This document shows positions 18,507 through 28,826 of a stretch of DNA of 64,000 nucleotides, piece by piece. Numbering within the stretch: the stretch's first letter is position 1; each line of letters opens with the position of its first letter. This stretch comes from Candidatus Anderseniibacteriota bacterium (GTDB taxonomy: Bacteria; Patescibacteriota; Andersenbacteria; UBA10190), in contig JBBDZC010000008.1 in assembly GCA_040900375.1 (NCBI GenBank), positions 2,182-66,181 of the forward strand. The letters are read 5' to 3'. The notes under the pieces were generated by a model. The model was not told where the DNA came from, made no database searches, and saw only the letters and a list, made by a program, of their open reading frames with translations. A program made the translations under genes and the position numbers.

Positions 18507-19993
18507 TATTGAGAGTTTGATCCTGGCTCAGGACGAATGCTGGCAGCGTGGATAAGGCATGCAAGTCGAGCGCCCCGCCTCACGGCGGGGAGCGGCAAAC
18601 GGGTTAGTAACGCGTAGGGAACCTCCCCGAAAGTGGAGCATAGCCCGCCGAAAGGCGGGGTAATTCTCCATGGTCTAGCTATTCTTTAAGAATAGCTAGT
18701 AAAGCTTCGGCGCTTTCGGACGGTCCTGCGTCCTATCAGCTTGTTGGTGCGGTAACGGCGTACCAAGGCTATGACGGGTAGGGGATGTGAGAACATGACC
18801 CCCAACATTGGAACTGCGACACTGTCCAAACACCTACGGGTGGCTGCAGTCGAGAATCTTCGGCAATGGACGAAAGTCTGACCGAGCGACGCTGCGTGTA
18901 GGAAGAAGGCCTTCGGGTTGTAAACTACTGTCGTGTGGGAAGAACTTTGACGGTACCACACAAGAAAGGGGCGCCTAACTCTGTGCCAGCAGGCGCGGTA
19001 ATACAGAGGCCCCGAGCATTGTCCGGAATTATTGGGCGTAAAGCGTCCGCAGGCGGCTTCATGCGTCTACTGTTAAATGGCAGGGCTCAACCCTGATCAC
19101 GTTGCAGTGGATACGATGGAGCTTGAGGAAGGAAGAGATGAACGGAACTCATAGTGAAGCAGTGAAATGCGTTGATATTATGGGGAACACCAATTGCGAA
19201 GGCAGTTCATTGGTCCTTTCCTGACGCTCAGGGACGAAAGCGTGGGGAGCGAAGCGGATTAGATACCCGCGTAGTCCACGCCGTAAACGATGTCAACTAG
19301 GCATTGGGAGTATCGACCCTCTCAGTGTCGTAGCTAACGCGTTAAGTTGACCGCCTGGGTAGTACGGCCGCAAGGCTAAAACTCAAAGGAATAGACGGGG
19401 GCCCGCACAAGCGGTGGAGCGTGTGGCTTAATTCGATGCTAAGCGAGGAACCTTACCAGGTCTTGAAATCTAGCTGCATACCTTTGGAAACATTGGTAGC
19501 CTTCGAGGGTGCTAGACAGGTGCTGCACGGTTGCCGTCAGCTCGTGTTGTGAAATGTTCCCTTCAGTGGGGTAACGAGCGCAACCCTTATCGCGTGTTGT
19601 TTTTCACGCGAGACTGCCGTGGTTAACACGGAGGAAGGTGGGGATGACGTCAAATCAGCGTGGTCCTCTGACGACCTGGGCTGCACACGCGCTACAATGG
19701 CTAGGACAATAAGTTATGCAAACTCGCGAGAGGGAGCCAATCTTTAAACCTAGTCTCAGTTCGGATTGGAGTCCGCAACTCGACTCCATGAAGCTGGAAT
19801 CGCTAGTAACCGTAGATCAGCCACGCTACGGTGAATACGTTCTCGGGCTTTGTACTCACCGCCCGTCAACTCAGAAGAGCTGATAATACCCGAAGATCCT
19901 GCATTTTTAGTTGGAGCCACGGTAAGATCAGTGATTAGGAGTAAGTCGTAACAAGGCATCGCTAGGGGAACCTGGCGATGGATCACCTCCTTT
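18507..19993 (+). rRNA. rrs: 16S ribosomal RNA (about 1.49 kb).
   Basis: 5' GAGAGTTTGATCCTGGCTCAG, internal universal blocks (GTGCCAGCAGGCGCGGTAATAC, GCACAAGCGGTGGAGC), 3' GGATCACCTCCTTTCT anti-SD. Confidence 0.95.
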
Positions 19994-20338
19994 CTAGGGA
20001 TACTGTCCTTGTGGTGTGGTATACCTGCCGCAAGGATCCTAGAAGGTCGAAAATCATTCTTTAAAGAATGATTGCTAGTAGTATGGATAGCACGTCATCC
20101 ATCTTCAAACATGTGATGTGCGCAAGCGGCAGTGTTTTGCAACCGCGCAGAGAAATGCAGTAGTGTCAGTTAAACCTAGCAGCCCGCGTGGGCTGTTTTT
20201 GGTTTACTACACGAAATTCACGAGAAAATTCCTTACCTACCTGCGAACGTCATAATGACTGTTTCCACTTGCTTTACATCACTCGTTTTCTTGCAAAAAG
20301 CTCCAAAAGACGTTTTAATATGCCATACTAGTTATCGA

Positions 20339-20412
20339 GGGTGCGTAGCTCAGTTGGTTAGAGCACTACACTGATAATGTAGAGGTCCCAAGTTCGACTC
20401 TTGGCGCACCCA
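20339..20412 (+). tRNA. tRNA-Ile (anticodon GAT) in the rRNA spacer. CCA not encoded.
   Basis: GGGTGCG acceptor. Anticodon arm CTACA-CTGATAA-TGTAG. T-arm CCAAG-TTCGACT-CTTGG. Confidence 0.85.
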
Positions 20413-20501
20413 CCCTACTACTCAACTGGCCTTTTTCCAGGAAACCCTGTTGTCTACCTTCTGGCAGTTTACTGGTGAGGCAAGTGCGCGGTGGGTAACT
20501 A

Positions 20502-21956
20502 ATGCGTTACCATACAGTCTGTATGCATTTACCGGCGGAAGTCCAATCAATCATTACGACGCTGCACCAGGCGGGGTTTGAGGCCTACGCTGTCGGCGGC
20601 TGCGTGCGTGATCTCTTGCTGCATCGAGAACCGAAAGACTGGGACGTGACGACCAAGGCTCGGCCGGAAGAGATTCAAAAATTATTTCCGCAACATTTCT
20701 ACACCAATCGTTTTGGAACAGTAACGGTGTTGACGGCGAGTAAACACGCCGCTTTGGCCCAGGTGGAAGTGACCACCTACCGTATTGACGGCAACTACAG
20801 TGACCAGCGGCATCCCGACGAAGTACGGTTTTCCACGACGTTAGAAGAGGACTTGGCGCGGCGGGATTTTACCATTAACGCAATTGCCCTCGATGAAAAT
20901 ACGGTGATTGATCCGTTTCAAGGGCAAGCTGACTTGGAACAAGGCATCATCCGCGCGGTCGGAGAGGCAAGCGAGCGCTTCCAGGAAGATGCGCTGCGCA
21001 TGCTGCGGGCAATACGGCTAGCGAGCCAGCTTGATTACACTATTGCGGCGGATACTCTACAGGCAATTGCGGCTGGAGCAGCTACGATTGCCGCTGTCTC
21101 CCCCGAGCGGGTCCGCGATGAATTCCTTAAGATTGTCATGAGTGATTATCCCGAGAAAGGATTTAACTTGTTGCAGGCAACTGGTCTCCTGCCCCTGATT
21201 CTACCCGAGTTAGCGGAAGGCGTTGGGGTCAAACAAAACAAGCACCATATCTATACCGTCTTTGAGCACAACATTAAATCACTGCAATTTGCTGCCCAGT
21301 ACAATTATTCTTTGTCCGTGCGCCTGGCGGCTTTACTCCACGATGTTGGTAAACCTCGGACTCGCCGCCGCCGGGGCAACGACTATACTTTTTACGCCCA
21401 CGAAATTGTTGGTGCCCGGATGGCAGAAAAATTACTACAGCGGCTGCGGTTGCCCCGCGAGGTTGTACAGCAGGTGACCCATCTCGTGCGCCACCACATG
21501 TTTTACTACGACGTCGGCAGGGTGACCGAAGCGGGGATGCGGCGGTTGCTGCACCGGGTGGGCCGGGAGAACTTTGCTGACCTGATTAAAGTTCGCATTG
21601 CCGAGCGTAAAGGTTCAGGTGTCCCCAAAGCCGAGCCGTACCGTCTGCGCCACTTGCAGTTTATGGCCGAAAAAGTATCCCGCCAGGCAGTGACGGTAGC
21701 CCAACTCGCTGTTAATGGCACCGATTTAATTCAAGAACTGCACCTAAAACCCGGTCCGCAAATTGGTGGCATTTTAAATGCGCTGCTGGCAGAGGTTCTA
21801 GACAACCCAGTTAAGAATGAGCGGTCGTACTTGCTCCAGCGAGCCCGTGAGCTCATTACGGCTGATCCGGAAACGCTCAAGGCGCTAGGCGAGAAAGCTC
21901 GCGACGAAGAGGAAACTAAGCGCGACGAAACTATCCGGCGAAAATACCACGTGTAG
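20502..21956 (+). CDS. cca: CCA-adding enzyme / tRNA nucleotidyltransferase (pol-beta head plus HD domain), located inside the 16S-23S spacer. Alternative start at 20523.
   Basis: GGCVRDLLLHREPKDWDVTT nucleotidyltransferase head. HD motif LLHDVGKP. 484 aa. Confidence 0.85.
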   Translation: MRYHTVCMHLPAEVQSIITTLHQAGFEAYAVGGCVRDLLLHREPKDWDVTTKARPEEIQKLFPQHFYTNRFGTVTVLTASKHAALAQVEVTTYRIDGNYSDQRHPDEVRFSTTLEEDLARRDFTINAIALDENTVIDPFQGQADLEQGIIRAVGEASERFQEDALRMLRAIRLASQLDYTIAADTLQAIAAGAATIAAVSPERVRDEFLKIVMSDYPEKGFNLLQATGLLPLILPELAEGVGVKQNKHHIYTVFEHNIKSLQFAAQYNYSLSVRLAALLHDVGKPRTRRRRGNDYTFYAHEIVGARMAEKLLQRLRLPREVVQQVTHLVRHHMFYYDVGRVTEAGMRRLLHRVGRENFADLIKVRIAERKGSGVPKAEPYRLRHLQFMAEKVSRQAVTVAQLAVNGTDLIQELHLKPGPQIGGILNALLAEVLDNPVKNERSYLLQRARELITADPETLKALGEKARDEEETKRDETIRRKYHV

Positions 21957-21999
21957 GGCGTACTTTCCACTTTGTATTTTTGCTTCTAAAATGAGGCGT

Positions 22000-22248
22000 A
22001 TGACACTTGGTAGTTTCTTCCTGGGGCTCGCCTTGATGATTATTGGCTTCTTGTGCGTTCGCAAAACTGATGCTCTCTTACGCTATTTCGGGGATATTAG
22101 CGAAGTATTTGGGCTCATCAATGCCCAGTGGATCAGTTGGAAGGTTTTTGGGGTGGCCTTAATGATTGTCGGTTTCATGGTCGCCTTTGGTCTCCTGCAG
22201 GCCTTCTTGATACTTACCATTGGTCGCCTCTTTAACTTCAGCGTCTAG
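22000..22248 (+). CDS. Small 2-TM membrane protein.
   Basis: GAGG RBS 5 nt upstream of the ATG at 22000. Track ORF 21991..22248. Confidence 0.45.
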   Translation: MTLGSFFLGLALMIIGFLCVRKTDALLRYFGDISEVFGLINAQWISWKVFGVALMIVGFMVAFGLLQAFLILTIGRLFNFSV

Positions 22249-28268: not shown

Positions 28269-28480
28269 TCTGAATTTTGGCTAGTGATATCTTGATTACT
28301 AGTTGATCGTGAACGCAGTGTGTGATTGATTTATGGTAGACCATCAAAGCTCTGAAGATTAACCGCTAATCTTCAGTCTTCGGTGGTTTTAGCGGTGGGG
28401 AAATCCCCGTAGTACATGCTTCGCATGACTACGGGACTTCCGCACCCGATCCTCGTACTTTTTCATTTCAGCTCATTATT

Positions 28481-28596
28481 CGCGGTGTCTTTAGCGAGAG
28501 GGAAACACCCGTTCCCATTCCGACCACGGAAGTTAAGCCTCTCAGCGCCGATGGTAGTTAGGATTATTACCCTAGCGAGAGTAGGTCGGTGCCGCG
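28481..28596 (+). rRNA. rrf: 5S ribosomal RNA.
   Basis: CCCGTTCCCATTCCGACCACGGAAGTTAAGC...AGCGCCGATGGTAGT...GCGAGAGTAGGTCGGTGCCGCG. Helix I closes CGCGGTG/GGTGCCGCG. Confidence 0.85.
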
Positions 28597-28654
28597 TATA
28601 ATGCGTTGAAAAGTACAAGGAAATCACGGAAGCATGCCCTGTATAGTGAATCCG

Positions 28655-28790
28655 TAGAATTCTACTGCGGGGTTAAGCCCACCAGCGCCGATGGTGTCCG
28701 CCGAAGCTTTAGCGTAGGTGGATGGTAGCCAACAAAGGCGAGAGCCAACCTTCGCACAAGGCTACGGCGGGGGTGCTAGGTCGGTGCCGG
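28655..28790 (+). repeat. Degenerate partial 5S-like copy (matches the 3' half of the 5S, with an internal insertion) between the 5S gene and the operon terminator.
   Basis: GTTAAGCCCACCAGCGCCGATGGT and TAGGTCGGTGCCGG match 5S positions GTTAAGCCTCTCAGCGCCGATGGT and TAGGTCGGTGCCGCG. Confidence 0.45.
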
Positions 28791-28795
28791 TTTAA

Positions 28796-28826
28796 AGAAA
28801 ATCCGTCCCTAAAGGACGGATTTTTT
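28796..28826 (+). terminator. Rho-independent terminator of the rRNA operon (ccgtcc-ctaaa-ggacgg, then TTTTTT).
   Basis: Perfect 6-bp GC stem followed by a 6-T run. Confidence 0.7.

Follow-up and report, generated by a model that had tools for sequence, protein, structure and literature searches.

A split rRNA gene cluster in Andersenbacteria with cca among its spacer tRNA genes and predicted separate transcription units

Unlinked rRNA genes and the Andersenbacteria locus

Ribosomal RNA (rRNA) genes lying more than 1500 bp apart are classed as unlinked, an arrangement that is reported to be widespread, to occur in many phyla including Patescibacteria, a clade rich in it, and to be phylogenetically conserved (Brewer et al., bioRxiv 10.1101/705046). 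In Borrelia burgdorferi, reverse transcription PCR (RT-PCR) revealed that 16S together with the gene of the transfer RNA for alanine (tRNA-Ala), tRNA-Ile, and 23S-5S form three independent transcripts (Bugrysheva et al. 2011, PMC3037291). Here we describe the rRNA locus in a 64-kb stretch of DNA from a member of the Andersenbacteria (hereafter the window, to which all positions refer), in which the gene cca of the CCA-adding tRNA nucleotidyltransferase lies between 16S and 23S. The gene order is 16S, tRNA-Ile(GAT), cca, an open reading frame (ORF) for an 85-aa membrane protein, tRNA-Ala(TGC), three further ORFs, 23S and 5S, with 4747 bp between the 16S and 23S edges. The rRNA and tRNA coordinates were defined with Rfam and ARAGORN, and all features from 16S to 5S are on the plus strand. 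The canonical order 16S, 23S, 5S on one strand with tRNA-Ile and tRNA-Ala in between is therefore present, together with a 16S-23S distance above 1500 bp, both here and in relatives (3.5-7.0 kb across Andersenbacteria, with variable gene content). Rfam, ARAGORN, the ORF list and the domain matches bear out the order and the spacer of about 4.75 kb with five ORFs including cca, as given in the original prediction made from this sequence. We propose that the locus is probably a split rRNA cluster, unlinked but adjacent, composed of separate 16S, tRNA-Ile-cca, ordinary-gene and 23S-5S units, and very probably not one rrn operon.

Similar to the unlinked genes surveyed by Brewer et al., the Andersenbacteria genes are more than 1500 bp apart and the trait is conserved within the clade. 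However, most unlinked pairs in complete genomes are separated by more than 6 kb, with a mean of about 410 kb, compared to 3.5-7 kb in Andersenbacteria, which in addition keep the canonical order, the orientation and both spacer tRNAs. The locus is a clade-wide example of the known unlinked-rRNA pattern and no novel operon type. In structure it comes closest to Borrelia burgdorferi, in which one 16S also lies several kb from 23S-5S and tRNA-Ala and tRNA-Ile stand apart within the gap. The separate units predicted from sequence in Andersenbacteria resemble the independent transcripts detected by RT-PCR there. Borrelia shows the order Ala-then-Ile, tRNA-Ile on the opposite strand, a tandem duplicate of 23S-5S and co-transcription of 16S with tRNA-Ala, whereas Andersenbacteria show the order Ile-then-Ala, a predicted terminator between 16S and tRNA-Ile, and cca behind the first tRNA. 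With the Escherichia coli-type rrn operon (promoters P1/P2 and a boxB-boxA-boxC leader) the locus has in common that its genes keep the same order and strand, that the same tRNAs stand in the spacer, that boxA-like elements precede 16S as well as 23S, and that the flanks of each rRNA form processing helices; it differs in a conserved strong predicted promoter before 23S, a predicted terminator after 16S, a 4.7-kb coding spacer, and opposite-strand genes in relatives.

The contexts of nine further Andersenbacteria cca genes (61-72% identity to the window gene), taken from NCBI, ENA, JGI and Logan assemblies, were mapped for rRNA and tRNA genes; loci are cited below by their numbers (L001 and so on). 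All loci examined share the order 16S, tRNA-Ile(GAT), cca, small membrane ORF, tRNA-Ala(TGC), variable genes, 23S, 5S, with one to five variable genes between tRNA-Ala and 23S, including a gene for a protein with the MscS conserved transmembrane (TM) helix (hereafter the MscS-helix gene). The comparison of spacer contents recommended with the original prediction thus yields a shared core of cca, the 85-aa ORF, tRNA-Ala and the MscS-helix gene, the rest being variable. The split layout is a genuine, clade-wide feature of Andersenbacteria. The original prediction had named a chimeric contig between 20413 and 24750, a mis-assembly of two loci, as a possible refutation. Such an artefact would have joined the end of a contig with 16S, a cca locus from elsewhere and the end of a contig with 23S-5S. 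rRNA genes are classic points of breakage and mis-joining in metagenome assemblies, and the related contigs L001, L082, L084, L086 and L087 stop inside or beside rRNA genes. However, about ten independent assemblies, with contigs of 575 and 698 kb among them, show this order despite cca identities of only 61-72%; no composition break is seen at the proposed joins in the window; and the upstream synteny of rpsP, KH, trmD and DUF212 followed by 16S is also kept in relatives. Because the layout is conserved in so many independent assemblies, we reject mis-assembly, the probability of which is negligible. The second possible refutation, that the spacer coding sequences are non-expressed pseudogenes, does not apply to three of them, as the domains of cca, the MscS-helix gene and the 85-aa ORF are intact and their identity across relatives is 37-72%.

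Predicted signals of the 16S and 23S-5S units

Both strands of the window were scanned for the sigma-70 pattern TTGACA-N16-18-TATAAT. Only two sites matched at 11/12 or better in 64 kb, one before 16S (18150) and one before 23S (24077), compared to 0.15 such matches per strand in shuffled sequence; the promoters of Candidate Phyla Radiation (CPR) bacteria are experimentally uncharacterised. In all relatives with a 16S 5' flank (9/9), a site of the same type is found 149-355 nt before 16S. Before 23S, all seven relatives with a 23S gene carry TTGACA-16-TATAcT (11/12) directly after the last spacer coding sequence, 294-413 nt upstream of 23S, which with the window gives 8/8 genomes and a range of 294-664 nt. 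The promoter search between 24060 and 24750 that had been suggested with the original prediction therefore ends in a near-consensus site. A weak site at 24417 (TTGGCA-16-TATCTT) was considered as the homologue of the relatives' 23S promoter and rejected, as the alignment from 24060 matches theirs to the 24077 promoter and the 24115-24215 leader.

Each rRNA leader contains a boxA-like CTTTaACAATT element. The 16S leader is arranged as a ATCCTTAAGGAT hairpin, a long hairpin (18236-18289) ending in the U-run CCTCTTTTTTGAT, the boxA-like ACTTTACAATT and the 5' strand of the processing helix, the boxA-like element of the window being CTTTACAATT at 18300-18309. The 23S leader differs from it in sequence, each of the two being conserved, and folds with z = -2.9. 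Over seven sequences, 89.5% of the cells in its helices are paired, compared to at most 50% with slid partners, and two compensatory changes give weak covariation support for the structure. Both leaders carry a stable, terminator-like hairpin with a U-run upstream of the boxA-like element, without an Rfam match. A permissive Rfam scan of 17900-29100 found no credible RNA besides rRNA, tRNA and an intron, so that the presence of a regulatory RNA of known type in leaders or spacer was rejected. The 23S leader of the window is about 300 nt longer than those of the relatives; the extra segment (24216-24448) has no homologue in the aligned relatives, and a spurious-looking 88-aa minus-strand ORF (24157-24423) as well as the weak site at 24417 are found there.

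Cofolding of the flanks of each rRNA gene revealed long processing helices (Table 1). The 16S flanks reach -176.9 kcal/mol against a mean of -146.4 (standard deviation 4.7) with a shuffled 3' flank, and the 23S flanks -169.2 against -120.3 (standard deviation 4.3) for shuffles, or -361.8 against -304.8 in a wide version. Since the helices formed by each gene's own flanks are far more stable than the shuffled controls, each rRNA could be excised from its own precursor. Directly behind the 16S helix a GC-rich hairpin with a T-run follows, located about 182-250 nt past the 16S 3' end in 10/10 Andersenbacteria genomes. In addition, the spacers of several relatives are interrupted on the other strand: L081/L082 carry tRNA-Ala in minus orientation, L087 has two minus-strand genes that separate tRNA-Ala from the MscS-helix gene, and a minus-strand AdoMet_dc gene lies between the 16S terminator and the tRNA-Ile promoter box in L090. 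Where the gap between 16S and tRNA-Ile is enlarged (752-1336 nt; L087, L090, L091, L001), the extra DNA also stands between terminator and box. The separate promoters, leaders and helices, the terminator-like hairpin after 16S and the opposite-strand genes in relatives together suggest that 16S and 23S are transcribed separately.

In a canonical rrn operon the promoter lies only upstream of 16S, and no terminator, coding sequence or opposite-strand gene interrupts the stretch from 16S to 23S; here a second promoter is found at 24077, at motif level, the window's spacer holds a terminator-like hairpin and five ORFs, and opposite-strand genes or an inverted tRNA occur in relatives. The single-operon alternative assumes one precursor of about 10.5 kb from the 16S promoter to the terminator after 5S, with Nus/boxA antitermination through the internal hairpins, from which tRNAs, five messenger RNAs (mRNAs) and three rRNAs are cut, and it would tie cca expression directly to rRNA synthesis. 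It agrees with the common strand and canonical order in the window, with the boxA-like elements in the leaders, with the 16S...23S-5S order kept in all relatives, and with the stretch from tRNA-Ile to the end of the 84-aa ORF, in which no terminator was detected in the window. However, a near-consensus promoter precedes 23S in 8/8 genomes and a promoter box precedes tRNA-Ile in 10/10, the terminator-like hairpin after 16S occurs in 10/10, and in the window both the 84-aa ORF and the MscS-helix gene are followed by further hairpins of terminator type with T-runs. An obligatory single precursor is incompatible with the relatives, because tRNA-Ala is inverted in L081/L082 and minus-strand genes occupy the spacer of L087, and of L090 as well. 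Furthermore, rrn-type antitermination is known mainly against Rho-dependent, not intrinsic, termination. We consider a single precursor very unlikely. Of the two alternatives left by the original prediction, the loss of 16S/23S co-transcription is supported by the comparison with relatives, whereas the cutting of mRNAs out of one pre-rRNA is not.

Several observations weigh against the split cluster in turn. All boundaries of the transcription units are drawn from motif predictions, and the window genes from 16S to 5S are all on one strand. The 16S terminator hairpin is thermodynamically unexceptional (z = -1.8), its weight coming from the conserved position, and the boxA-like signals in both leaders make some read-through past it possible. 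The boxA-like element before 23S is degenerate in the window (CTTCAATAAT, 24632-24641), while relatives carry CTTTGACAATTGAAT at the aligned position (alignment A2). A terminator-like hairpin with a U-run (24191-24210) lies about 100 nt past the 23S promoter in 5/8 genomes and is absent in L085, L087 and L088. It competes with the conserved helix GAAGCGG/CCGCTTC and may act as an attenuator, bind a protein in the manner of boxB, or have no role at all. In addition, the promoter before tRNA-Ala in the window is weak (10/12 to a relaxed motif), so that tRNA-Ala may belong to the cca unit.

Based on the window and its relatives, we propose at least four plus-strand transcription units for the split cluster. 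The first would start at the predicted 16S promoter, pass through the boxA-like leader into 16S, which would be excised via the helix of its own flanks, and end at 20178-20203. The second would start at the TTGCAA-17-TTTAAT promoter (20291) and carry tRNA-Ile(GAT), cca and the 85-aa membrane ORF. tRNA-processing nucleases would cut tRNA-Ile off the 5' end of the cca mRNA, with tRNA 3' processing generating the mRNA 5' end, and the Cca protein would then supply the CCA missing from the tRNA-Ile gene. The third would comprise tRNA-Ala(TGC) and one to five ordinary genes with weaker promoters and terminators of their own, of which only the MscS-helix protein is conserved. The fourth would lead from the predicted 23S promoter through the structured leader and the boxA-like element into 23S, with its self-splicing group I intron, and 5S, and end at the terminator at 28796-28826. 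Instead of co-transcription, a pair of strong, nearly identical promoters and leaders of a similar antitermination type would then keep 16S and 23S in balance.

Table 1. Positions of the features of the rRNA locus in the window
Feature	Position	Strand	Evidence and remarks
Predicted 16S promoter	18150-18177	+	TTGACA-16-TACAAT (11/12); 355 nt before 16S
16S leader	18184-18410	+	Blocks conserved in relatives (alignment A5); fold z = -4.6
16S processing helix	18379-18410 x 20136-20167	+	27 bp; cofold
16S rRNA	18505-19993	+	Rfam RF00177, 1443.5 bits, full length
Intrinsic terminator-like hairpin	20178-20203	+	AGCAGCCCGCGTGGGCTGTT and T-run, directly after the 16S processing helix
Predicted tRNA-Ile/cca promoter	20291-20319	+	TTGCAA-17-TTTAAT; invariant columns, alignment A3, 10 genomes
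tRNA-Ile(GAT)	20339-20412/14	+	Rfam, ARAGORN; CCA not encoded (discriminator A then CCC)
cca	20502 (homologues' start 20523)-21956	+	Pfam PolyA_pol, PolyA_pol_RNAbd, HD, tRNA_NucTran2_2; NF009814
85-aa membrane protein, two TM helices	21991-22248	+	ORF list, alignment A6, tblastn
Weak promoter-like box before tRNA-Ala	22259-22287	+	TTGCCA-17-TTCAAT; 10/12 to relaxed motif
tRNA-Ala(TGC)	22303-22372/74	+	Rfam, ARAGORN; CCA not encoded (A-CAC)
84-aa basic ORF	22479-22733	+	Terminator-like hairpin and T-run after it (~22722-22745)
Promoter-like site before MscS-helix gene	22746-22774	+	TTGACA-17-TACACT, 10/12
251-aa membrane protein, MscS conserved TM helix	22837-23592	+	Pfam PF05552
116-aa membrane-like ORF	23707-24057	+	ORF list only
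Predicted 23S promoter	24077-24105	+	TTGACA-17-TATATT (11/12); 20 nt past last spacer ORF, 664 nt before 23S
Conserved 23S leader	24115-24215	+	Hairpin TGCAG/CTGCA, helix CCA-GAAGCGG/CCGCTTC-TGG, invariant CCTCTGG; alignments A4, A9
23S processing helices, 5' strands	24449-24739	+	Cofold
23S helix	24700-24739 x 28266-28305	+	36 bp
23S helix	24474-24496 x 28315-28337	+	22 bp
23S helix	24449-24467 x 28449-28464	+	16 bp
23S rRNA	24741-28265	+	3525 nt; Rfam RF02541, 2335.8 bits
Group I intron without ORF, inside 23S	27552-27862	+	RF00028 full model, 53.7 bits vs gathering score 50
5S rRNA	28481-28597	+	Rfam RF00001, 91.1 bits
Intrinsic terminator	28796-28826	+	13-bp stem and U-run; closes 23S-5S unit; -17.6 kcal/mol, z = -6.0

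cca and its tRNA neighbours

The cca product has the features of a class II CCA-adding tRNA nucleotidyltransferase with an HD domain, judged from its sequence. It matches Pfam PF01743 at 6.4e-38 as well as PF12627 and PF13735, scores 301.8 bits against the NCBIfam equivalog NF009814 for CCA tRNA nucleotidyltransferase (cutoff 290), and displays the motifs GGxVRD...DxD, RRD and EDxxR. The A-adding model NF041569 and the PcnB models gave scores far below their cutoffs on this protein, the CCA equivalog being the best match. The protein is 100% identical to one encoded on a 142-kb contig of a Candidatus Andersenbacteria metagenome-assembled genome (CPR/Patescibacteria). Among the six tRNA genes of the window, those for Arg and Ser encode CCA, whereas it is missing from those for Ile (A-CCC), Ala (A-CAC), Pro (A-CAC) and Gly (T-CCC), in agreement with the original count of four out of six.

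A TTGCAA-17-TTTAAT box is located 8-28 nt before tRNA-Ile and scores 10-12/12 in 9/10 genomes. The gap between tRNA-Ile and cca measures 26-27 nt in L083, L085 and L087; it reaches 70-108 nt in another four genomes, among them the window (88-108 nt), and 474-659 nt in L081, L089 and L091. Neither a terminator nor a promoter-like site of at least 9/12 was found in the window gap. With both genes on one strand, the box upstream, and a gap of 26-108 nt without a terminator in 7/10 genomes, cca appears to be transcribed behind tRNA-Ile from this box, together with the 85-aa ORF, and we infer a shared transcript because the gap is short and holds neither a terminator nor a promoter-like site.

The Escherichia coli operon thrU-tyrU-glyT-thrT-tufB is a co-transcription unit of tRNA and mRNA. 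Similar to it, a tRNA gene would head a unit continuing into a translation-related protein gene, and the mRNA 5' end would come from tRNA 3' processing. Unlike in the tufB operon, the protein in Andersenbacteria would complete the 3' end of the same tRNA, and the linkage of cca with tRNA genes recurs throughout a large radiation (69/88 loci, see below). The original prediction had placed cca inside an rRNA operon and proposed co-regulation of tRNA maturation with ribosome synthesis. From this, a coupling of cca to a CCA-less tRNA survives as a predicted co-transcript, whereas the partner would be the tRNA genes and not the rRNA.

The assignment of tRNA-Ala is less firm. It may form a unit of its own or the tail of the cca unit. 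Better boxes than that of the window precede it in 7/10 genomes, 9-27 nt upstream, of the type TTGCAA-17-TTTAAT/TTAAAT or TTGACA-16/17. tRNA-Ile and tRNA-Ala share the TTGCAA-17-TTTAAT type of box, with T at position 2 of the -10 element, also in L001, L085, L087, L088 and L089. This type differs from the TTGACA-16-TATAcT type before the rRNA genes, and the other window tRNAs (Arg, Ser, Pro, Gly) reach only 8-9/12 to it.

cca was further examined in a total of 88 loci, 80 of them contig loci with cca relatives, mostly from other Parcubacteria, at 42-56% identity. A tRNA gene lies within 700 nt of cca in 69/88 loci and within 100 nt upstream in 45/88, and 87/94 cca-adjacent tRNAs lack an encoded CCA by a crude check. 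In Parcubacteria, tRNA-Arg(TCG), Lys(CTT) or Gly(GCC) is found upstream of cca, and tRNA-Pro(CGG), often 7-90 nt past the stop codon, followed by tRNA-Ala(CGC), downstream; examples are L008 (11468), L011 (1736), L018 (2584), L020 (11426) and L022 (11480). No 16S, 23S or 5S rRNA lies within 10 kb of cca in 79/80 loci, the sole exception being an Andersenbacteria locus. Therefore, the cca-rRNA linkage is, as far as these contigs reveal, specific to Andersenbacteria. An MscS-helix (PF05552) gene is found downstream of cca-tRNA-Pro-tRNA-Ala(CGC) in L014 (14714-15388), L031 (18052-18723) and L034 (14642-15307), which belong to CPR bacteria outside Andersenbacteria and have no rRNA nearby. Because the MscS-helix gene follows cca and tRNA genes there too, what the Andersenbacteria spacer contains seems to be a tRNA/cca/MscS syntenic block of older origin and no collection of genes that an rRNA operon has taken up.

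An alternative keeps the separate units and gives cca a promoter of its own, the gene merely standing beside tRNA-Ile and the adjacency in Parcubacteria being neutral synteny. The gap offers room enough for such a promoter in the window and in L081, L089 and L091, that of L081 holds a terminator-like hairpin and a called ORF, and in 20/34 Parcubacteria cases the tRNA-Arg(TCG) found upstream of cca is encoded on the other strand. However, the 26-27-nt gap in three genomes leaves no room for a separate promoter, the window gap lacks a promoter-like site at the threshold given above, tRNA-Pro(CGG) in other Parcubacteria is on the same strand as cca, and adjacency in 69/88 loci far exceeds the expectation from tRNA density. 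We regard this alternative as unlikely and prefer transcription of cca behind tRNA-Ile.

A further-reaching possibility is that cca expression is mechanically coupled to tRNA maturation in Andersenbacteria and wider Parcubacteria. The cca mRNA would then exist only within a tRNA-mRNA precursor (tRNA-Ile-cca here, cca-tRNA-Pro(CGG) elsewhere), and whether it is stable or can be translated would hinge on cleavage of the CCA-less tRNA in cis by RNase P or RNase Z. This idea is speculative and we hold it to be rather doubtful. If true, an ancient loop of feedback would link the pool of tRNA 3' ends awaiting completion to the synthesis of their finishing enzyme, and in Andersenbacteria this cca module would have become enclosed by the 16S and 23S-5S halves of the cluster. 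A limited literature search on cca-tRNA gene linkage in CPR bacteria found nothing relevant, which is no proof of novelty.

Other features and significance

Three of the five spacer coding sequences, cca, the MscS-helix gene and the 85-aa ORF, are clearly conserved, as judged by sequence comparison. The 85-aa ORF always lies directly downstream of cca in Andersenbacteria (37-57% identity); tblastn matched it in all Andersenbacteria loci and gave no matches outside the clade. The MscS-helix protein shows 66-72% identity in seven relatives. A single homologue of the 84-aa ORF (54% identity) was found, just upstream of the MscS-helix gene in L091. The 116-aa ORF has no Pfam or NCBIfam match and no tblastn match in the relatives examined, and is only a putative gene because no homologue was found in those relatives. 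The antisense strand of tRNA-Ile (20339-20413, minus) gave a sub-threshold Rfam match to the Plastid-ycf2 5'UTR family (35 bits vs 65.7), almost certainly an artefact of tRNA-like sequence within that family.

Group I introns and insertions bearing LAGLIDADG ORFs are well described in CPR rRNA genes (PMC11270868). The group I intron of the window was absent from the original account of 23S. Compared to the 2925-nt model, the 23S gene has about 290 extra bases beyond the intron, and the segments q229-355 and q913-984 could not be aligned to relatives. Insertions in the 23S and 16S genes of relatives carry LAGLIDADG ORFs (L083 16290-16976; L091 18300-18941 and 19378-20019; L085 8914-9555), and the 16S gene of L001 contains about 840 inserted nt (about 6413-7250). 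Between 5S and the terminator, 28598-28795 (especially 28658-28724 and 28770-28790) resembles a degenerate partial 5S-like repeat, with GTTAAGCCcacCAGCGCCGATGGT ... GTAGGTgGaTG followed by CTAGGTCGGTGCCGG, the latter resembling the 5S 3' end. Rfam did not call a 5S there at E of at most 1, and the repeat is absent from relatives, in which the next gene starts about 50-100 nt past 5S. Upstream of the cluster, an ORF of 186 aa (17378-17938), rich in Cys and with a hydrophobic segment at its N-terminus, lies between DUF212 and the 16S promoter, without a Pfam match or a tblastn match in Andersenbacteria relatives; these have different ORFs or none at its place, for example ORFs for large PKD/CLIPPER/VWA proteins that stand after the KH-domain gene and before trmD.

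The Andersenbacteria locus is a well-resolved, clade-wide case of an rrn operon that comes apart while its parts remain adjacent. In the split, a promoter and an antitermination-type leader would have been functionally duplicated for 23S, 16S would have gained a terminator, and a spacer tRNA would have been re-used to head a protein-coding unit. This is useful for the annotation of CPR genomes, in which rRNA linking based on the spacer and amplicon methods based on the internal transcribed spacer (ITS) will fail, and it bears on the question of how 16S and 23S are kept in balance without co-transcription where only one rRNA copy is present. The locus does not overturn current understanding. 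Its most interesting lead is the coupling of cca with tRNA genes, whose recurrent placement together in Parcubacteria offers a small, testable lead on the control of tRNA 3'-end maturation in bacteria whose tRNA genes mostly lack CCA.

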